The notes under the pieces were generated by a model, which was not told the origin of the DNA, did no database searches, and saw only the letters and a list, made by a program, of their open reading frames with translations. From positions 1 through 64,000 of the IMG/VR virus record IMGVR_UViG_3300048908_000112: a stretch of DNA of 64,000 bases; one strand, written 5' to 3'. The translations under genes were made by a program, and so were the position numbers. Shown one piece after another: positions 956 through 60,459 of this stretch (its first letter is position 1; each line of letters opens with the position of its first letter). This DNA is from a virus.

Positions 956-1682
956 GGGCTATTGGCAACTGTACATGCCGGATCATCCGTTGGCGGATAG
1001 CACCGGCCAAGTATGGGAGCACCGCAAGATCGTGTATGACCGAATCGGCGACGTGGTGCCGCCGTGCGAGCTGTGCGGGAAGCCCTTGACTTGGCAAATT
1101 GCGCACATCGACCACATCGACGAGAATCCGTCGAACAACGATCCGAAGAATCTGAGACCGCTTTGCAGTCCGTGCAATACGCGCCGTGGCGCTCGCTTGC
1201 CGCAATATCTCTGCAAAGGGCGCCACGCAATCACATTTGACGGAGAAACGAAGACCGCCAGCGAATGGGCTCGCGACCCGCGAGTCTCAATTGCACACAA
1301 CGTTATATCTCAGCGAAAGCGGCGCGGGATGTCTGACTACGACGCTTTATTTAGCCCGAAGCTTACCCACAACGGCAAGAAGGCCGTAAAGCCGACGCCC
1401 AAAATTAGAATCGCTCACGAGCGCTCAAATGCTGTCGCACTGACGATTAACGGCGTTACGAAAACGGCCATGGAATGGTCGCGCGAGCCTGGATGCACTG
1501 TTACCGATGGAGCGATTCGAATGCGATTCAGGCTTGGATGGGATCACGAGCGAGCCGTCTTTGCGCCCGCGAAGCCAGGTGGTGACCGCGGGATAGTGAG
1601 CCGCGACGCACTTGGCCGAATCGAGAGCGCGAAGGTCCGGGAGATGAAGAAAGTAATAACTAACGAATTGGAGGTCGCTTGA
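789..1682 (+). CDS. HNH homing endonuclease with two C-terminal DNA-binding repeats
   Basis: N-terminal CKIEGC...CQKHY knuckle and HNH core AHIDHIDENPSNNDPKNLRPLCSPCN. Repeats ITFDGETKTASEWARD and LTINGVTKTAMEWSRE. GTG start after an AAGGA SD, lying inside the 3' end of ninG. Confidence 0.8.
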   Translation: MRKLVESKNCKIEGCDRLAMYSAQQVCQKHYFRFMRTGTYHLLPKPQRTMRRQDSRGYWQLYMPDHPLADSTGQVWEHRKIVYDRIGDVVPPCELCGKPLTWQIAHIDHIDENPSNNDPKNLRPLCSPCNTRRGARLPQYLCKGRHAITFDGETKTASEWARDPRVSIAHNVISQRKRRGMSDYDALFSPKLTHNGKKAVKPTPKIRIAHERSNAVALTINGVTKTAMEWSREPGCTVTDGAIRMRFRLGWDHERAVFAPAKPGGDRGIVSRDALGRIESAKVREMKKVITNELEVA

Positions 1683-2500
1683 ATGAGCTTCATCTTTTCG
1701 CGGGCCATGGTGGAGGAATTCTCGCAGGTCAATTGCTCGGGCATCGATGCGTTTGCGCCGTTGAATTTGATCCCTACGCCCAAGCCGTCCTCGTTGCGCG
1801 GCAAAACGATGGAACCATGCCGCCGTTCCCGATTTGGAATGACGTTCGGACTTTCGACGGACGACCTTGGCGAGGAGTTGTTGATGTCGTGGCTGGCGGA
1901 TTTCCCTGTCAGGACATCAGTGCCGCTGGAAACGGAGCCGGTCTCGAAGGCGCGCGAAGCGGTCTCTGGGTCGAAATGGCTCGGATCGTTCGCGAAGTAC
2001 GACCGCGAATCGTCTTCGTGGAAAACAGCCCAATGCTCACTTCTCGGGGACTCGGACGAGTACTTGGAGACTTGGCCGAGATGGGGTTCCATGCGGAATG
2101 GGGAGTGCTTTCCGCGGGCGATTGCGGCGCCGATCACGAGCGAGAAAGGATCTGGATTCTGGCCCACTCCAACCGTCTGTGGGAATCACAACAGGAAGGG
2201 TGCGAGCAAAGCGAGTGGCGACGGACTGGCAACCGCGGTGAAGAAGCGCAGTATTCCGACGCCAACGGCATCCATGCACAAAGCGTCGTCCATCAAAGCA
2301 CTAACCCGCAAAGATGGACGAGACCGAACCTACGACCGGCTGGACCACTTCGTTTTTGCTACGGAAAGTGGCCCGCTGAATCCGGACTGGGTCGAATGGC
2401 TCATGGGGTGGCCTATAGGTCACACAGACTTAAAGGCCTTGGAAACGGGCAAGTATCAAGAGTGGCTGCAGCAGCATTCACCCTACTCTCAAACGGATAA
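1679..2500 (+). CDS. DNA (cytosine-5)-methyltransferase
   Basis: Motif I LFAGHGGG, motif IV GGFPCQDIS, motif VI FVENSP, motif VIII HERERIWILAH, motif X LKGLGNGQV. TTG start overlaps the HNH stop. Confidence 0.85.
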   Translation: MNELHLFAGHGGGILAGQLLGHRCVCAVEFDPYAQAVLVARQNDGTMPPFPIWNDVRTFDGRPWRGVVDVVAGGFPCQDISAAGNGAGLEGARSGLWVEMARIVREVRPRIVFVENSPMLTSRGLGRVLGDLAEMGFHAEWGVLSAGDCGADHERERIWILAHSNRLWESQQEGCEQSEWRRTGNRGEEAQYSDANGIHAQSVVHQSTNPQRWTRPNLRPAGPLRFCYGKWPAESGLGRMAHGVAYRSHRLKGLGNGQVSRVAAAAFTLLSNG

Positions 2501-2513
2501 GGAGGCAGCGTGA
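1683..2513 (+). CDS. Co-extensive +1-frame ORF inside the C5-MTase gene (WPTPT / NPDWVEWLMGWP motif protein)
   Basis: ATG 1683 lies 9-10 nt after GGAGG and there is no stop for 277 codons. GC3 of the first 60 codons is about 73%, versus about 53% in the MTase frame. Motifs: WPRWGSMRNGE, FWPTPT, IPTPTAS, LNPDWVEWLMGWPIGHTDL. Confidence 0.5.
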   Translation: MSFIFSRAMVEEFSQVNCSGIDAFAPLNLIPTPKPSSLRGKTMEPCRRSRFGMTFGLSTDDLGEELLMSWLADFPVRTSVPLETEPVSKAREAVSGSKWLGSFAKYDRESSSWKTAQCSLLGDSDEYLETWPRWGSMRNGECFPRAIAAPITSEKGSGFWPTPTVCGNHNRKGASKASGDGLATAVKKRSIPTPTASMHKASSIKALTRKDGRDRTYDRLDHFVFATESGPLNPDWVEWLMGWPIGHTDLKALETGKYQEWLQQHSPYSQTDKEAA

Positions 2514-2713
2514 AGGAAATGAAAACGGGCGAGATTCTGAAATGCCCGCATTGCGGAAAAGAAGAAGACAGCCCAGTCGAAGACTTCGTCGTGCAAGGGC
2601 CGCTTGCTCGCATCGGCCCAACTTCCCGCGTGGAGGATCAATGCGGCTGGTGCGATGGCGCATTCGCCGTTGAGCGCGTCAATCAAGACACCTATCTCGT
2701 GGAGAAAGCATGA
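2510..2713 (+). CDS. Small zinc-ribbon protein
   Basis: CPHCG...CGWC pairs. GTG 2510 follows a strong AAGGAGG SD and overlaps the upstream stop (GTGA). Confidence 0.55.
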   Translation: MKEMKTGEILKCPHCGKEEDSPVEDFVVQGPLARIGPTSRVEDQCGWCDGAFAVERVNQDTYLVEKA

Positions 2714-30808: not shown

Positions 30809-32467
30809 ATGCCAACAGGCGCAGGCGTTCGCCTTCCCGACTTTCCGGATGCTACTGGCTTCACGGATGCCGATCTGGTTTTCATGACCCAGAATGGGGC
30901 GACCGTCAAAGGGACAGTCGCACAATTGAAGACTGCCGTTGCAATTAGTGCGACAGCAGAAGCATTTGTTCCAGGTGATGGCGTAACGGCAGGCACATTT
31001 CTGCCCGGCGGAATGTCCATCACATTGACTGGAAACTATGCGTCGATCAATGACCTTGATGTTTATGCTGACGCCGTGCCGCAGCTTGACTGCACTCTGA
31101 CCGGTCAGGTGCTAGGGTTCAGCCCGACCATTCCCACCGGGATCTCTAAGATCATCGTGCGTGGGAAGCAGGCTCGGTCGATCGGATCGCCCTCAGACGC
31201 GACCGTCACCGATGCGAAGCTCGCGCCGGGCAGCAACATCTATTTCGTCGTCAAGCGCACGGCGGACCCGCGCGCATACGGCGCGGCTGGTGATGGTGTA
31301 ACTGATGACATGCCAGCGCTTTTGCGTGCCATTGCGGCAAATCCAGAGGTCGAGTTCACGGCGGGCACATACGCGCTCAACCCTGGCACGTTGCCTTCAA
31401 CGCTCAGGCTGCTCACTGCGCGGCCGGGAGTAACGATTGTGCCGGGGCCGTCGGTTCCTACGGGCGCTGGCTTCTCGACTTGGCTAACTGCGGCCGGGCT
31501 CACCAACGCCGAAATTAGCGGCCTGCAGTTCCAGGCGCCATCCGTCACCTACGGCGGACTGACTGTGCTGCTCGGCGCGTCCTGCGTATCGACCAAGATT
31601 ACCGATCTGGTCCTTCAGGGCGCTGGATATAACGGGATTTCCCTTGCGCTCGGTAGCCGTAATAAGGTTCTCGGTTGCGATGTGATCGACTACAAGGGTG
31701 GCGGCATCATTGCCTCCGGAAGCTCTCTTGCTGTTCTCGATATTGGGACCGAAATCGCTGGCTGCTACACCCAAGGGAATGGCGCGTCCAGCATCGCTCA
31801 CGGCGTTGCGTTTAACTTCTGCCAAGACTTCAACGGGCACGATAACAGAAGCATTTCTGCCGGTACATTCGGTTTTAGCGCAAATCAATGCGAAGGCGGA
31901 ATTCTGCATAACAACATCAGCTCCGAAAGCATTCATGAAGGTCTCAATGTCGAAGACAGCAACTTCATCAAAGTCATTGGGAATAGAGCGCTATGGGCTG
32001 TTGGCGGTGGAAGTAGCTTTGACTACGGCATGAGTTTCTTTGCCAACTCTAGGAATTGCTTTGGACTAGAAGTGCTCGACAATAGTGTCGTGAATTCAGG
32101 TAGTTGCGGCATTGCCTATGCTGGTTCATCTACGTTCGGCGTACAGCACTCGCCTCTGCGCGGGAACCTCGTTTTTAACTGCAACCAAAAGAAAGCTGCT
32201 ACCGCTAGCGGCACAGACAACTTAGCCGGGATCATGCTTTCTGCGACGCAGACGCAAGCCAATCCAGTTGCTGGGAATACAGTTGTAGATGTGGGGATTA
32301 ATGCGCTGACATACGGTATCGCCGAGTTGGACTTCGGCACCGGCGCACCGACAAGCAACGAAATTACTTCTAACCGCACCTTTGCTCAAAACAATTTCTC
32401 AGGTGGATCGGCAATCCACACAGCAGGACCATCGACCAAGACGGCACTTAACACTTCGCAGCTTTGA
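30809..32467 (+). CDS. Tailspike/fibre with pectate-lyase-like beta-helix (putative depolymerase)
   Basis: DPRAYGAAGDGVTDDMPALLRAIAA is the hallmark start of Pectate_lyase_3-type beta-helix domains. Repetitive G/N/S-rich coils follow. Confidence 0.75.
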   Translation: MPTGAGVRLPDFPDATGFTDADLVFMTQNGATVKGTVAQLKTAVAISATAEAFVPGDGVTAGTFLPGGMSITLTGNYASINDLDVYADAVPQLDCTLTGQVLGFSPTIPTGISKIIVRGKQARSIGSPSDATVTDAKLAPGSNIYFVVKRTADPRAYGAAGDGVTDDMPALLRAIAANPEVEFTAGTYALNPGTLPSTLRLLTARPGVTIVPGPSVPTGAGFSTWLTAAGLTNAEISGLQFQAPSVTYGGLTVLLGASCVSTKITDLVLQGAGYNGISLALGSRNKVLGCDVIDYKGGGIIASGSSLAVLDIGTEIAGCYTQGNGASSIAHGVAFNFCQDFNGHDNRSISAGTFGFSANQCEGGILHNNISSESIHEGLNVEDSNFIKVIGNRALWAVGGGSSFDYGMSFFANSRNCFGLEVLDNSVVNSGSCGIAYAGSSTFGVQHSPLRGNLVFNCNQKKAATASGTDNLAGIMLSATQTQANPVAGNTVVDVGINALTYGIAELDFGTGAPTSNEITSNRTFAQNNFSGGSAIHTAGPSTKTALNTSQL

Positions 32468-32478
32468 GGACATTAACA

Positions 32479-33426
32479 ATGAAACGAATTTTCGCTGGCG
32501 CATTGGCCGCGCTTTTATCGTTTTCTGCGATCGCCGCGACGACTGTTCCCGTACAGCTGCTTAATCCGACTGGCTCAACCTCTGGTCAGGTCATCCGGTC
32601 GACCGGCCCGACGTCGGCGCCCGCATGGGGCAATGTCGCAGTCACGGCGCTCGCTGCGCAGGCCTCAAACACGGTGGTGGCGAACGTAACAGGCTCGGGA
32701 GCCAGTCCTACGGCGTTCGCCATGCCGAGCTGCAGCACGTCATCGAGTTCGCTGAATTGGACCGCCGGCACCGGATTTACCTGCAATACGTCAGTCAACG
32801 CGGCACAACTCGGCGGCGCCACGTTCGCAGCGCCCGGCCCGATTGGATCAACGACGGCATCGACCGGCGCCTTCACAACGTTGTCCGCCAGCAGCACCGT
32901 GAGCGGCACGGGGTTCAGCACGTATTTGGCTTCGCCGCCCGCCATTGGTGGAACCACGCCCGCTGCCGGCACCTTTACGACCCTGAAGGGGAACTCGCTT
33001 GCGAAGGTGTTCGCAACCAACACCAGCGCCCAAAGCATCCCGAGCGCAGCGAACACAGCCGTTACTGGCTGGACTGCCGGAATCGACGTCAACAGCAATT
33101 TCACGACGTCGACCGGCACTTTCACCGCGCCCACCACTGGCTATTATGTTGTAACCGCGCAACTGACATGGGGGGCGATTGCAGGAGCAGGTGCATCCGG
33201 CCAGTTAAAGGCAACCGTATATGTGAACGGGTCGCCGACGACGCTTCAGGGCTTCGCGCCAATGTCCAACACGACTCAGCAGACCAACGTTGTCCAAGTG
33301 AGCGGGATCGTCAACGTCACGTCAGGTCAGACGATCGTGCTGAATGCCTTCCAGAACAGCGGCAGCGCCGTCGCCTTGTCGAACTCGGTCGGTGCTGTCT
33401 GGATGAACGTCTACCAGCTTCCGTGA
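32479..33426 (+). CDS. Secreted fibre-like protein with C-terminal C1q/TNF-like head
   Basis: Sec signal MKRIFAGALAALLSFSAIA|AT after a GAGGA SD. Fibre repeats IGSTTASTGAFTTLSA and IGGTTPAAGTFTTLKG. C-terminus TGTFTAPTTGYYVVTAQL...VLNAFQ is C1q-like. Confidence 0.6.
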   Translation: MKRIFAGALAALLSFSAIAATTVPVQLLNPTGSTSGQVIRSTGPTSAPAWGNVAVTALAAQASNTVVANVTGSGASPTAFAMPSCSTSSSSLNWTAGTGFTCNTSVNAAQLGGATFAAPGPIGSTTASTGAFTTLSASSTVSGTGFSTYLASPPAIGGTTPAAGTFTTLKGNSLAKVFATNTSAQSIPSAANTAVTGWTAGIDVNSNFTTSTGTFTAPTTGYYVVTAQLTWGAIAGAGASGQLKATVYVNGSPTTLQGFAPMSNTTQQTNVVQVSGIVNVTSGQTIVLNAFQNSGSAVALSNSVGAVWMNVYQLP

Positions 33427-34422
33427 CGGCATGCGCCGCAACGCGCCTTTGATGACGGTCGAGTGAAACACGAACTCGGCCGCACCGAATGTCAGACCAG
33501 CGGCCAGGGCGACACCAATCGCTGCAATGAAGTAAGCGGCGAGCGGTGCGCCGTGTGCGAAACGCACCATCAGGTACATCGCTGCGGCAATGAAGATGGT
33601 GTGCGAAAGGTACAGGCCGTATGAGTAATCGCCCGCGCGCTCAAGAAATTTCGGCACGCGCAATCCCTGCACGAGATGCAGAAGCAACGAGAACGACAGA
33701 CCCCAAAGCACATAGCGCACGTAGTAGGGCATCGGGCCGACCGTCTGCGCAATGATGAGCAGGATCAGCGCCTGAATCGCGAGTGTCAGGGGATTCGCAG
33801 TCTTCAGCGCGTCGCGACCCACCAGCCCATACAACGCCCCCGCGATGAACTCGAAGTTAGCCGGCGACACAAGAATCCATTTTCCGACGAGCATAACCTC
33901 ATGATCTGACGGAAACGGATGAACGCCCAACTGGCAGGCTAGCGCAATGATGGCCGCCCAAATGCCGAGCGCCACTGCGATGTGTTGACGCGACATCCGA
34001 AGCAGGACGAAGGCGTACATGATGGCGTAGAACACCATCTCGTAGACCAGCGTCCAGTACGGAACGGCGTAGCTCTCGTTGAATGCCGACGCCGGAAGCA
34101 GGCTCAGCGAGTACCAGCCAAACTGCCATTCCCGACCGAGTAGCGGGAGCAGCAGCCCGCCGAGCGCGACGGCCGCCCAGTAGGACGGGTATATCCGCGC
34201 GATGCGCTGCGGCATGAAGATAGCGCCTTGCGACAGGCAGAGCGTCATGACATAGCCGGATATCACGAAGAAGATGCTGACGCCCATCTGGCCGAAGCCG
34301 ATCGGCAGGAACGGGGTGAAGTCAACGCCTTTGGCTTGGCAGGCGAAGAAAATGCTGTGCTGTAGCACGACCAGGCAAGCCGCTATCGCGCGAAGCCCTT
34401 GGAGGCCGCTGTTCTTGTTCAT
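33322..34422 (-). CDS. Acyltransferase family 3 (O-antigen/polysaccharide O-acetylase-like)
   Basis: LQGLRAIAACLVVLQHS opening and about 10 hydrophobic helices. The last ~35 codons run antisense into the fibre-like gene. Confidence 0.85.
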   Translation of the reverse strand: MNKNSGLQGLRAIAACLVVLQHSIFFACQAKGVDFTPFLPIGFGQMGVSIFFVISGYVMTLCLSQGAIFMPQRIARIYPSYWAAVALGGLLLPLLGREWQFGWYSLSLLPASAFNESYAVPYWTLVYEMVFYAIMYAFVLLRMSRQHIAVALGIWAAIIALACQLGVHPFPSDHEVMLVGKWILVSPANFEFIAGALYGLVGRDALKTANPLTLAIQALILLIIAQTVGPMPYYVRYVLWGLSFSLLLHLVQGLRVPKFLERAGDYSYGLYLSHTIFIAAAMYLMVRFAHGAPLAAYFIAAIGVALAAGLTFGAAEFVFHSTVIKGALRRMPSRKLVDVHPDSTDRVRQGDGAAAVLEGIQHDRLT

Positions 34423-58004: not shown

Positions 58005-58913
58005 ATGGATTGGTTCCGCTGGTGGCATGGCACGGTGACCGACCCGAAGTTTCAATGGGTCGCGCGTCGTTGCAAGCAGCCTGCCGCAAACGTCGTTTCA
58101 GTTTGGGCGTGTCTGCTTGAGTGCGCTAGCAATGCAACGCAATGCAACGCGGACGCAACGAGAGGCAACGTTGCATCGTTCGACTGCAACGTCATCGATG
58201 TTTTGCTCGGTCTGGATGATGGGTCTGTGAAGGCGATTTTCGACGCGATGACTGAGAAAGGCCTGATCGAAAACGGAAGGCTGACGATGTGGGATGCGAG
58301 ACAGCCGAAGCGTGAAGATTCTGGCAATCCCAATACTGGCGCGCTTTCTAGCACTGAGCGGAGTCGTCTGCACAGAGAAAAGGTGAAACGCGAAGCGACG
58401 CATGCAACGGAAATGCAACGCAATGCAACGCACGGCAACGACAGAGAAGATAAGAGTAGAGAAGAGATTAAAGAGGCTAACGCCTCTGTCGACAGCAACG
58501 CTAACGCGTCGTCTGTCGACCTGCTTGGCGATGGCATCCAGGAAGAGATCGATAGAACCGAAGGCGCATTGCACTGCCCAGTTGCTCGCATCGTAAGCGC
58601 GTATCACGAACTCATGCCGAAGAACCCGCGCGTCAAGGTTCTGAGTGACAAGCGCAAGAGATCGATAGCGGCGCGTTGGCGGGATGCTGCATCGCTTGAT
58701 TGCGAGCCGTTCGGATATTCGACGGTCGCGGACGGGCTGAAGGCATGGAAGGAATTCTTCGTGGTCTGCTCGGAATCGGATTTCTTGACAGGCAGGGGGC
58801 GTCCCAGACCAGGACAACCACCGTTTCTCGCTGACATCGACTTTTTAATGTCGCCGGATGGTTTTGCGAAGTGCATTGAAAACAAGTATCACCGCGAGGT
58901 TAATGAACAATGA
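58005..58913 (+). CDS. Replication initiator/replisome organiser (O-like) carrying internal iterons
   Basis: N-terminus WFRWWHGTVTDPKF...VWACLLECAS. C-terminus resembles the conserved phage C-terminal domain (...DFLTGRGR...FLADIDFLMSPDGFAKCIEN). Lies directly upstream of DnaB. Confidence 0.75.
   Translation: MDWFRWWHGTVTDPKFQWVARRCKQPAANVVSVWACLLECASNATQCNADATRGNVASFDCNVIDVLLGLDDGSVKAIFDAMTEKGLIENGRLTMWDARQPKREDSGNPNTGALSSTERSRLHREKVKREATHATEMQRNATHGNDREDKSREEIKEANASVDSNANASSVDLLGDGIQEEIDRTEGALHCPVARIVSAYHELMPKNPRVKVLSDKRKRSIAARWRDAASLDCEPFGYSTVADGLKAWKEFFVVCSESDFLTGRGRPRPGQPPFLADIDFLMSPDGFAKCIENKYHREVNEQ
58131..58191 (+). repeat. Iteron cluster 1 (GCAACG x5, ~10-bp phasing)
   Basis: aATGCAACGC aATGCAACGC ggacGCAACG agagGCAACG ...ctGCAACG. 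Confidence 0.65.
58401..58500 (+). repeat. Iteron cluster 2 (GCAACG x4 at 10-11 bp) plus purine-rich tract and a fifth copy
   Basis: catGCAACGg aaatGCAACG caatGCAACG cacgGCAACG, then acagagaagataagagtagagaagagattaaagagg, then ...gacaGCAACG. Confidence 0.65.
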
Positions 58914-60304
58914 ACGCACCCGACAGATTTACCGAACAACCGCGAGAACTGCCTGTCTCCGTTGAGGCTGAGCAATCCGTTCTCGGCGCCCTGCTGCTCG
59001 ACAACGACGCTTTCGACCGCATCGGCCATGTGCGCCCGGAGCACTTCTATCGCCACGATCACCGGATCATCTTCGAGACGATCCAGAAACTCATCGTGTC
59101 GAACCGCAACGCCGACGTCATTACGGTTCTCGAGGCGCTTGGCGAACAAGCCGCTAACGTTGGTGGCCTGCCGTACTTGAATTCTCTCGCAAGCAACACG
59201 CCGGGATCGGCCGGAATCAAGCGCTGGGCGGACATCGTTGTCGAGCGCTGGAAACTGCGCGGCGTCCTGTCGGCAACGAATGAAATTGTCGAACTCGTGC
59301 ATAACCGCGCCGGCAAGACGGTCGCGGAGATCATCGGCGAGGCGCAATCGAAGTTCGAACCGCTCGTCGTGAGCACGGCCAAAGAGCCGCAACTCATCAA
59401 GAATTTCCTGACGAACGTCATTGAGCGGATCGACGCGCAATACAACGGCACGCCCACGACCGTTAAAACGCTCTCTACGGGCTTGCGCGATCTGGACGCC
59501 AAGTTGGGTGGAGGAATGCGACCGGGCCAACTGATCGTCATTGCGGGCCGTCCAGCGATGGGAAAAACGGCAATCGCTCTCGGCGTTGCGGAGTCGGCAG
59601 CGCACAAAGGCGGCGCTACCCTCTTCTTCTCGCAGGAAATGCCTGGCGAAGAACTGGCTAACCGCTCCCTGTCTCGCGCGTCTGGCTTGTCGCTTGACAA
59701 GATTCTCGACGGTCGCAAGTTCGAGAGCGACGAGGATTTCAGTCGGCTGACTGCTGGCACGTTGAAGGTTTCGGATTTGGAACTGCTCGTCGACGAACAG
59801 CCGCAAATGAGCCTGCAGGAGATTCGCGCTCGCGCCCGCACCGCGAAGCGTCGCCATGGCCTCGGCCTGATCGTTATCGACTACCTCGGCCTGATGGCTG
59901 ACGGCGAAGGCAACACGCGCAATGAGAAGGTCGGCGCCAACAGTCGCGGGCTGAAGGCTCTGGCGAAACAGATGGAAGTGCCCGTCGTCCTTCTGGCACA
60001 GCTTAACCGGAAACTCGAGGAGCGCCACGACAAGCGCCCCATGCTCTCGGATCTGCGCGACTCCGGCGAAATCGAACAGGACGCGGACATCGTTCTCTTT
60101 CTGTACCGCGACGAGGTGTACAACCCGAACACGCGTGATCGTGGAATCGGCGAGATAAACATTGCCAAGCAGCGCAACGGCCCTACTGGCACCGTCGCTG
60201 CGGCCTACATCGGCGAGCGCACCCTGTTCGCGGACCTGATGCCGGGAACGGTGTTCGGTCAGCGTGACGAGGCGGAATCGCGCCCGAGACGGGGATTCCA
60301 ATGA
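58910..60304 (+). CDS. dnaB: Replicative DNA helicase DnaB
   Basis: PVSVEAEQSVLGALLLDN, Walker A AGRPAMGKT, FSQEMPGEEL, IVIDYLGLM, LAQLNRKLEER.DKRPMLSDLRDSGEIEQDAD. Confidence 0.92.
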   Translation: MNAPDRFTEQPRELPVSVEAEQSVLGALLLDNDAFDRIGHVRPEHFYRHDHRIIFETIQKLIVSNRNADVITVLEALGEQAANVGGLPYLNSLASNTPGSAGIKRWADIVVERWKLRGVLSATNEIVELVHNRAGKTVAEIIGEAQSKFEPLVVSTAKEPQLIKNFLTNVIERIDAQYNGTPTTVKTLSTGLRDLDAKLGGGMRPGQLIVIAGRPAMGKTAIALGVAESAAHKGGATLFFSQEMPGEELANRSLSRASGLSLDKILDGRKFESDEDFSRLTAGTLKVSDLELLVDEQPQMSLQEIRARARTAKRRHGLGLIVIDYLGLMADGEGNTRNEKVGANSRGLKALAKQMEVPVVLLAQLNRKLEERHDKRPMLSDLRDSGEIEQDADIVLFLYRDEVYNPNTRDRGIGEINIAKQRNGPTGTVAAAYIGERTLFADLMPGTVFGQRDEAESRPRRGFQ

Positions 60305-60459
60305 CCCCCGCCGAAGCAAAAGACGTCGCCGAAGAACTCGCCACTTTGCCGCTAGCCGCCAGACGCGCTTATCTCGCCGATCTGGCAAAGACGGATGAAG
60401 CGGCAGAACGGATGGTACGGGAAGCGCTACTGGCGCTGTGGGAAGGGCGGAAAGGATAA
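60301..60459 (+). CDS. Hypothetical protein (52 aa)
   Basis: ATGA-coupled to dnaB. Below the track cutoff. Confidence 0.4.
   Translation: MTPAEAKDVAEELATLPLAARRAYLADLAKTDEAAERMVREALLALWEGRKG

Follow-up and report, generated by a model that had tools for sequence, protein, structure and literature searches.

The C5-cytosine methyltransferase M.HhaI contains a large domain with motifs I-VIII together with X, as well as a small domain with the target-recognition region and motif IX. Two natural heterodimeric C5 methyltransferases, M.EcoHK31I and M.AquI, were named as exceptions (PMC3404938). M.EcoHK31I (E. coli HK31, YGGCCR) was described to contain motifs I-VIII and X in the alpha chain and motif IX in the beta chain (PMC2836561, PMC3404938, describing Lee, Kam and Shaw 1995). 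The coding sequence of its beta chain lies wholly inside the alpha gene in a different frame, neither chain can be dispensed with, and alpha and beta associate less strongly once 42 or more residues are removed from the N-terminus of beta (PMC2836561). In M.AquI (CYCGRG), motifs I-VIII are present in alpha, and the distal variable region and motifs IX-X are present in beta (PMC3404938). The locus described here lies in a stretch of viral DNA of 64,000 nucleotides (nt; positions 1 to 64,000 of the IMG/VR record IMGVR_UViG_3300048908_000112, hereafter the window) and contains two open reading frames (ORFs), A and B, both of which are stop-free over the same ~0.83 kb of phage DNA. It is probably a C5-cytosine methyltransferase gene of a phage in which the two domains of the enzyme are encoded as two polypeptides, alpha from frame A and beta from frame B, by co-extensive frames overlapping in the +1 register. 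Like M.EcoHK31I, with which it was compared by published description, it would place motifs I-VIII and X on alpha and motif IX on a beta chain from an alternative frame.

ORF B was found to be in the +1 frame relative to ORF A, starting 4 nt after the A start and ending 13 nt after the A stop (Table 1). An earlier note on this DNA, made from the letters alone, had described the co-extensive ORFs exactly so, and the C5-methyltransferase motifs that it had quoted for frame A were all present. Its values for the guanine-cytosine (GC) content of the third codon position (GC3) were also reproduced, the content at codon positions 1/2/3 being 0.68/0.51/0.53 in A and 0.52/0.53/0.69 in B, with a GC3 of 0.59-0.77 in the other genes of the window. 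The note had taken these values to favour B as the real frame, which did not hold, since the substitutions showed A to be selected in the first 480 nt. GC3 was unusable as a frame discriminator because the third codon position of B (B3) is the first codon position of A (A1), a GC-rich position here.

Purifying selection was found to act on A in 1679-2164, on B in 2165-2434 and on A again in 2435-2497, as observed from the per-column conservation, the codon-position variability and the substitution counts in 34 independent close pairs. The constrained residues were 1-163 and ~232-270 in A, and from ~100 to 266 in B. The identity of A was 0.73 in 1685-2164, and the third codon position of A (A3) was the least conserved position throughout; 644 of the 993 substitutions found in the first 285 nt of the close pairs fell on A3. 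The least conserved position switched to A1, which is B3, in 2165-2434. The segment between motif VIII and the motif IX-like stretch (2165-2374) contained 1606 substitutions in the close pairs, 898 of them at B3, 397 at B1 and 311 at B2, and 800 were synonymous in B and non-synonymous in A. The identity of A in this segment was 0.19 against 0.17-0.19 for the non-coding third frame, and B was the only frame under selection; A contained no stop there, and 2.1 per sequence were expected. From 2435 onwards A3 was again the least conserved position. The closest relative, 97% identical in B, was found to contain 22 differences, of which the 6 in 1679-2164 were all silent in A, and the 8 in 2165-2390 all changed A, 7 of these 8 being silent in B.

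The first part of B, which is referred to as the leader, showed an identity similar to that of the non-coding third frame in each interval compared. The leader was found to contain 981 substitutions in the 34 close pairs, and 597 of them were synonymous in A and non-synonymous in B. Stops in B over 1685-2164 were absent from 77 of 77 loci, with 2.2 per sequence expected. The ~70 codons in the middle of A mirrored the B leader, being open with amino acids that were not conserved.

Both frames were found to match the same loci in a tblastn search of phage genomes, at full length and in single pieces, the relatives including Salmonella phage S9-5 and phages of Acinetobacter, Pseudomonas, Vibrio, Ralstonia and Microcystis. 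Salmonella phage S9-5 contained both frames open with the same 4-nt offset. Only four E. coli genomes were found to contain a relative of the S9-5 homologue (MW722521, query), and each of them annotates frame A only. Frame B had 6678 database homologues, all named 'hypothetical' and none with a Pfam domain, and it matched the PHROG family phrog_1008 'DNA methyltransferase' with an expect value (E) of 7e-30. The homologues of frame A were annotated 'DNA cytosine methyltransferase'. In some cases both frames were annotated on apparently the same contig, for example the proteins P0003 and P0236 on a 4.5-Mb contig of Paraburkholderia youngii.

Of a set of 84 loci, 80 had come from scanning genomes with B as the seed, and the others were three phage records and the window gene itself. 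In 77 of the 84, which covered many phyla and a GC content of 49-68%, both frames stayed open for 700 nt or more. B was the +1 frame of A in all 77 loci with both frames open and in 83 of the 84 overall, and the third frame contained 15 stops on average. Because this set had been chosen through B, the count was repeated on full-length homologues from viral contigs that were chosen by A motifs only. A co-extensive +1 ORF was present in 73 of these 76 loci; it started exactly 4 nt after A in 67, and its first codon was ATG in 72. Stops in B in most homologues, which the earlier note had named as evidence against it, were thus not found. The arrangement was present with both frames intact in well over 150 independent loci across phyla, in isolates, metagenome-assembled genomes and viral contigs.

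The closest relatives were the loci L248/L249 (2827-3657; JGI 3300028024, ENA ERZ27250357) and L250, which were 97% identical in B. The gene callers had reported only frame B in them, without a Pfam match, in a neighbourhood resembling the lambdoid nin region (NinB, NinX, HNH_3). Those annotations consequently lack the methyltransferase.

Simultaneous constraint from A and B was found to be strong in 2376-2480 and patchy in ~2000-2164. Along most of 1715-2044 the four-fold sites of A were free to vary, with a mean entropy of 1.37 bits. In the first zone of dual constraint, three of them were frozen, namely CGA in 66 of 66 loci at 2000 (D107 of B), GCC in 73 of 73 at 2075 (P132) and GGG in 76 of 76 at 2084 (G135), and most other four-fold sites of A in 1995-2164 were free (mean entropy 1.25 bits vs 1.37 upstream). 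The identity of B exceeded that of the third frame from ~2045, and the share of substitutions on A3 dropped from 65% to 49% in 1995-2164. The four-fold sites of A in the second zone showed a mean entropy of 0.16 bit, and every such site in 2381-2411 was frozen. The reciprocal was also found, as the four-fold sites of B in 2376-2436 used only bases that keep the residues of A (Glu, Arg, Val, Leu). V237 of B was encoded by GTC in 71 loci and by GTA in 6, which gives Arg in A in 77 of 77; T248 was encoded by ACC or ACA, with Arg in A in 74 of 76; and L232 was encoded by CTG, with Glu in A in 47 of 49. Motif X, LGNGQV(P), was nearly invariant in A across the family, and its zone contained B-specific frozen sites at 2462 (GTG in 64 of 66, W261 of B) and at 2474 (GCA in 67 of 75, H265 of B). 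Over ~100 nt, the patterns E..GR(V/M)AxG(V/M)AxRxxR(L/I)K-ALGNGQVP in A and LNPxWVEWLMGWPxGWTDLK...W..QH in B were found to be co-selected.

This co-selection bears on programmed recoding, one of the explanations given in the earlier note, by which translation would start in A, shift by +1 into B near 2160, return to A by -1 near 2435 and give one full-length enzyme. Because both readings were constrained on the same nucleotides, and one chain cannot hold both, the zones of dual constraint argue against it. The selected frame does switch in exactly the order that recoding would require, the motif order so assembled (I-VIII, variable region, IX, X) would be canonical, and TTA AAG at 2429-2434, present in most loci, resembles the A-AAG slip motif of E. 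coli. However, no conserved heptamer was found at either junction, and AAG was replaced by AGG, GGG, GAG or CAG in ~20% of the loci. A contained no stop after the first junction, and the two frames were kept free of stops for hundreds of codons that would go unread under recoding. B-specific constraint was present upstream of the first and downstream of the second junction, A-specific constraint was present upstream of the second, and the loci L034 and L040 and the gene pairs of actinophages (see below) use a different split. Recoding is considered very unlikely for this locus.

The openness of a second frame was by itself not exceptional in this window. The GC content of the window was 58%, and two further overlaps between alternate frames reach 800 nt or more in it, so a long open +1 frame is not remarkable alone. 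The + strand was found to contain a nearly co-extensive pair of ORFs in +1, 32464-33426 (320 amino acids, aa; rich in Ala/Thr/Gly/Ser and tail-fibre-like) and 32625-33452 (275 aa, rich in Arg/His), with a called overlap of 800 nt and a stop-to-stop overlap of 862 nt, and this pair looks like a GC-rich shadow frame. The - strand contained the ORFs 58889-60388 (499 aa) and 59059-59841 (260 aa) antisense to 58910-60304 on the + strand, a DnaB-like helicase by sequence reading. These antisense ORFs are probably shadow ORFs, so long alternate-frame ORFs can arise by chance in the window. Shuffling of the synonymous codons of A in the window gene gave 4.0 expected stops in B, the same shuffling of B gave 8.0 expected stops in A, and the other frame was left open in at most 1% of the shuffles. 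The shuffles also gave figures of 4.1 expected stops in B, with B open in 1%, and of 8.4 expected stops in A, with A open in 0.1%. The openness of neither frame follows from the protein sequence of the other. The significance of the locus therefore rests on the shuffles, the openness in relatives and the switching of selection between the frames, not on the openness in the window.

An untranslated shadow frame B beside a functional A, the latter acting as a compact stand-alone methyltransferase, would agree with these long shadow ORFs elsewhere in the window, with the annotation of A alone as 'DNA cytosine methyltransferase' by PGAP and IMG, and with the first third of B, which behaves exactly like a shadow. 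It does not agree with the segment 2165-2374, where B was conserved, the substitutions accumulated on B3 and A fell to the level of the non-coding frame. The synonymous sites of A were frozen exactly where B needs particular residues, and an openness expected in ~1% of synonymous shuffles was seen in ~95% of the relatives. The selection pattern refuted the shadow-frame reading for 2165-2434, and a B that is wholly a shadow is judged highly improbable. The conserved shadow frame that the earlier note had listed as one possibility accordingly failed for the second half of B and stood for its first ~95 codons. True dual coding, which the note had also proposed, was supported in the form of a mosaic, each frame being under amino-acid selection in only a part of its length. 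Neither M.EcoHK31I nor M.AquI had been named in the note.

Natural variants were found to split the motifs in other ways. In the loci L034, from a Spirochaetia assembly, and L040, from Paraburkholderia, frame A ended shortly after motif VIII, and the single frame B held the WPTP-repeat region along with motif IX, a pre-X segment and motif X. The same layout, with beta in the +1 frame, was present in gp79/gp78 of mycobacteriophage Chaph and gp32/gp33 of Streptomyces phage Vash, and both genes of each pair were annotated 'DNA methylase'. Mycobacteriophage SG4 gp64 was found to have the layout of the window gene with the +1 frame open from ~codon 30. The variants indicate that frame B encodes the genuine C-terminal half of the enzyme and that the motif X module can sit in either frame.

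Some relatives were found to look broken, namely those of the phages Llama and AlpineSix, the chimeric protein P0322 and three loci from metagenome-assembled genomes in which the A linker holds a stop. They would suit a decaying or mis-assembled gene, in which two compensating insertions or deletions (indels) in a single-frame methyltransferase had left no present function, and an A-B-A mosaic is the expected product of two compensating frameshifts. Both frames were nevertheless intact in the independent loci counted above, each segment was under strong purifying selection, and no single-frame relative, with all motifs on one chain, was found among the 150 best or the ten longest representatives. 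Decay was refuted for this locus and is hardly credible as its explanation; a scenario of compensating indels is plausible for the ancient origin of the family. P0322, which had been considered as a single-chain relative, was rejected, as it is a chimera passing from A (motifs I-IV) to B and probably a frameshift mutant.

A frame shift between motifs VI and VII was found in Llama (L003, 1501-2260) and AlpineSix (L164, 568-1164) by comparison with SG4 (L165, 601-1359). The shift of the Llama type fuses a leader of B type to motifs VII-X of A type, and the records contain one or two 'DNA methylase' genes for it. The mycobacteriophages of the Llama type and P0322 look like frameshift mutants.

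The start region was compared in 179 distinct start contexts. A motif resembling a Shine-Dalgarno sequence was present in 140 of them, with its 3' end in most cases 4-5 nt ahead of the A start and hence 8-9 nt ahead of the B start. The arrangement NTGA-ATG was the norm of the family, canonical starts of both frames being found 4 nt apart in 157 contexts, with ATG as the B start in 164 and a stop codon directly 5' of the B start in 153. The ATG of B exists because the second codon of A is AAT and not AAC. The core of B (residues 100-252) matched 12,934 clusters at 50% identity, and in nearly all of the best 150 representatives the match began near residue 101 of the target, so that the ORFs as called have a leader of equal length. 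The leader had a predicted local distance difference test score (pLDDT) below 50 in the AlphaFold2 model.

From this layout it is proposed that both chains would be initiated from the one Shine-Dalgarno sequence, alpha at TTG 1679 and beta at ATG 1683. The first ~95 residues of beta would then be a passenger leader dictated by the codons of the catalytic domain of alpha, with selection only against stops. Beta probably begins at the 5' ATG with the leader translated as a passenger, and such a start would explain why the leader is kept open without amino-acid conservation.

Frame A was found to match PF00145 over residues 3-169 (E = 6e-33), which covers the profile positions 3-167 of 324, and the family profile of frame A aligned to residues 15-175 of M.HhaI. 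The AlphaFold2 model of A, made from an alignment of 83 sequences, was confident at residues 1-170 and at 255-273, the latter forming a C-terminal helix, and the pLDDT was below 50 at 172-254. In Foldseek the model matched the large domain of M.HhaI and M.HaeIII over ~171 columns (E = 1e-13). The TIGR00675 score of frame A was 84, under the cut-off of 100.65, because the small domain is missing from frame A, and no full-length model of a C5 methyltransferase was matched. The search of both translations against Pfam that the earlier note had advised was thus positive for A and without a match for B. The stretch of B that resembles motif IX matched Chaph gp78 in hhalign with a probability of 95.5%. 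The note had likened EWLMGWP in this stretch to a segment just before motif X of other phage methyltransferases; the likeness to motif IX found only indirect support, through gp78 and the actinophage gene pairs.

The switch of the selected frame falls on a domain boundary of the M.HhaI type, so that alpha would correspond to the whole large domain and the constrained part of beta to the small domain with an N-terminal extension. Alpha would thus contain the catalytic, S-adenosylmethionine-binding large domain with motifs I-VIII, a linker of ~70 residues that is predicted to be disordered, the pre-X segment and the helix of motif X. Beta, in its residues ~100-266, would be the small DNA-recognition domain, with a segment that is likely needed for the association with alpha, followed by the variable WPTP region and the motif IX-like LNPxWVEWLMGWPxGWT. 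The variable region with the WPTP repeats is a putative target-recognition region. Alpha and beta would assemble into an active enzyme that methylates the phage DNA, most plausibly against host restriction.

The number of WPTP-type repeats was found to vary among relatives, being two in the window (2157-2273) and reaching four or more where the protein was 390-480 aa long (L034, 3001-4170; P0246, P0322, P0343). The repeat number could track differences in target specificity.

Several findings weigh against the assignment of the two polypeptides to the two domains of one enzyme. Neither B nor the A-B-A hybrid was identified by Pfam, NCBIfam or sequence searches of the PDB as the C-terminal portion of a C5 methyltransferase. 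Pfam aligned the hybrid, and the B proteins that contain motif X (L034, L040), no further than profile position 163, so library models cannot confirm motifs IX and X. No match was found in the PDB with the B profile or the IX-to-X fragment, and LGNGQV(P) was aligned by none of the library models or PDB sequence searches. As the libraries did not recognise B, the assignment of motif IX rests on its pattern, the gene context and the hhalign match to annotated phage proteins. The AlphaFold2 model of B alone was poor, with a mean pLDDT of 48.9 (55-67 in the C-terminal half), and Foldseek gave no meaningful match to it, the best being DNMT3A (E = 1.2). Three metagenome-assembled loci, L033 (~3575), L007 (~3509) and L039 (~3437), contained a single stop in the A linker that cuts motifs I-VIII off from motif X, with B intact; they may be recent pseudogenes, assembly errors or three-piece variants. 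A leader of ~95 residues without amino-acid selection is, furthermore, an odd thing to translate; the relatives in actinophages lack a long leader, their beta frames opening only ~30 codons ahead of the SGM motif; and the Met conserved at residue 136/137 of B could serve as an internal start. Locus L033 was also found to contain a Met directly after the linker stop.

The points on the leader, the actinophages and Met 136/137 concern how beta begins. Two polypeptides might be made with beta starting not at the 5' ATG but internally (at Met 136/137 or near residue 100), or by entry of ribosomes from A, the openness of the leader having another cause. In M.EcoHK31I the start of beta lies within alpha, and further Met codons of beta are alternative internal starts; in databases, some proteins have their first residue at the core (e.g. 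P0272, 'MKYD...'); and the ATG at residue 136/137 of B is kept by frozen synonymous sites in A; to these may be added the short open stretch in the actinophages and the lack of amino-acid selection on the leader. An internal start leaves several observations aside, however. The leader was free of stops in all 77 loci, against the 2.2 expected, and open in 73 of the 76 loci chosen by A. The ATG of B was present at +4 in 164 of the 179 contexts, which forces the Asn codon of A to be AAT, with the adjoining stop on its 5' side and a Shine-Dalgarno spacing of 8-9 nt. The constraint specific to B at D107, P132 and G135 lies upstream of Met 136/137, and no start codon was conserved between residues 69 and 135 of B. 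No conserved internal start was found 5' of the constrained core of B, unlike the beta chain nested in the alpha of M.EcoHK31I. An internal or secondary entry is therefore regarded as unlikely, and a beta chain starting at the 5' ATG is preferred.

The features of the locus are collected in Table 1. Coupling to the downstream gene was compared in 162 loci, in which 29 NTGA overlaps were found on the A stop, and 23 NTGA overlaps and 24 cases of a stop followed directly by a start were found on the B stop. As the coupling to the two stops was about equal, it was uninformative on the frame. In the closest relative, L248, the start of the next gene was also found on the B stop.

Table 1. Coordinates of the overlapping ORFs, their segments and the neighbouring features in the window
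Feature	Position	Strand	Description
Cys-rich ORF further upstream, 260 aa	173-955		Partial overlap with the 789-1682 ORF; from sequence reading
Upstream ORF, 297 aa	789-1682		HNH-like by sequence reading (HxxH...CN); stop TGA 1680-1682, in the B frame
Shine-Dalgarno GGAGG	1670-1674	+	4 nt before TTG 1679 and 8 nt before ATG 1683; apparently common to both starts
Dual start TTGAATG	1679-1685	+	A start TTG 1679-1681; stop TGA of the upstream gene 1680-1682; B start ATG 1683-1685
ORF A, putative alpha subunit	1679-2500	+	TTG start, TAA stop, 273 aa
ORF B, putative beta subunit	1683-2513	+	ATG start, TGA stop, 276 aa
B leader, ~residues 1-99	1683-1980	+	Stop-free; amino-acid selection not beyond the shadow of A
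Peptide unique to the B leader			FGMTFGLSTDDLGEELLMSWLADFPVR
Catalytic large-domain coding part of A	1694-2167	+	Motif I LFAGHGGG 1694-1717; motif IV GGFPCQDIS 1895-1921; motif VI FVENSP 2015-2032; motif VIII HERERIWILAH 2135-2167
First zone of dual constraint	1995-2164	+	Few sites; A motifs VI-VIII over the start of the B core (YD...SSWKT...WPRWGSMRNG)
WPTP repeats of B		+	FWPTPT 2157-2174; IPTPTAS 2253-2273
Segment between motif VIII and the motif IX-like segment	2165-2374	+	Variable WPTP-repeat region in B; open linker in A
Peptide unique to the A linker			LWESQQEGCEQSEWR
Second zone of dual constraint	2376-2440	+	B LNPDWVEWLMGWPIGHTDLK (motif IX-like); A ESGLGRMAHGVAYRSHRLK (pre-X segment)
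Motif X in A	2429-2497 (also given as 2429-2455)	+	LKGLGNGQVSRVAAAAF; overlaps the B tail (F/Y..W..QH)
A stop TAA	2498-2500	+	Read from sequence
AGGAGG ahead of the next ORF	2500-2505	+	Read from sequence
Next ORF, 67 aa, CxxC...CxxC	2510-2713	+	Start GTG 2510-2512 overlaps the B stop TGA 2511-2513 (GTGA)

Beyond the shared distribution of motifs, the window gene would resemble M.EcoHK31I in an N-terminal part of beta that is non-catalytic and matters for the association with alpha. The names of the plasmids pET3a-M38 and pET3a-C23 (PMC2836561) hint at chains of ~38 and 23 kDa for M.EcoHK31I. An alpha with 273-340 aa and a constrained beta core of ~165 aa would be of similar size. The two systems differ in that the beta ORF of the window is co-extensive with alpha behind one Shine-Dalgarno sequence and not nested, in that the conserved variable region of the window gene is in the beta frame whereas the literature puts the target-recognition domain of M.EcoHK31I on alpha, and in that the family of the window gene is very large.

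The genes of M.AquI reportedly overlap in different frames, as Karreman and de Waard are said to have found in 1990. M.AquI is similar in the separation of the large-domain motifs from the small domain, and its layout was present exactly in L034, L040, Chaph gp79/gp78 and Vash gp32/gp33. It differs from the window gene, in which motif X is in the alpha frame, so that alpha must read through the whole gene, and in which the overlap is ~820 nt rather than a short junction. Frame A shares motifs I-VIII and the fold of the large domain with the monomeric M.HhaI and M.HaeIII (PF00145), whereas the C-terminal half of the window enzyme would be on the other chain and frame. The locus also resembles the long same-strand overprinted genes of phages and other viruses, as two proteins are read from one DNA stretch with selection partitioned between the frames. 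It differs from them in that the second frame would be an ancestral domain of the same enzyme and not a de novo protein, and in that roughly one third of either ORF is selected for openness alone.

In the collection of papers searched, queries on overlapping methyltransferase genes in phages and on the motif strings found no description of a family-wide arrangement, and PMC8788219 did not mention methyltransferases. The chances appear evenly balanced that a very large, unannotated family of cytosine methyltransferases of phages and prophages is built as obligate alpha/beta heterodimers from co-extensive ORFs of ~830 nt, with one ribosome-binding site, starts separated by 4 nt, roughly one third of either ORF as open 'transit' sequence and the DNA-recognition domain in the missed or hypothetical chain; counted by the beta core, the family would contain, at 50% identity, at least 12,934 clusters. 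The layout, to date proven for a single enzyme (M.EcoHK31I, in 1995), would then be present in thousands of genes of phages and prophages. In bacteria and phages, long same-strand overlapping genes are seldom found and their reality is often questioned, and the comparative evidence here, with a frame switch and reciprocal frozen sites, was unusually clean.

Annotation pipelines call one frame of such a gene. Where B only is called the methyltransferase becomes invisible, and where A only is called the DNA-recognition subunit is missed. The prediction of methylation specificity for this family should use the variable region of frame B, which is the sole conserved reading of that stretch. Naturally split methyltransferases already serve as scaffolds for targeted methylation (PMC2836561). 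The dual start, followed by an open but unconstrained leader and linker, would make these genes a tractable system for the expression of overlapping genes in fixed proportion.

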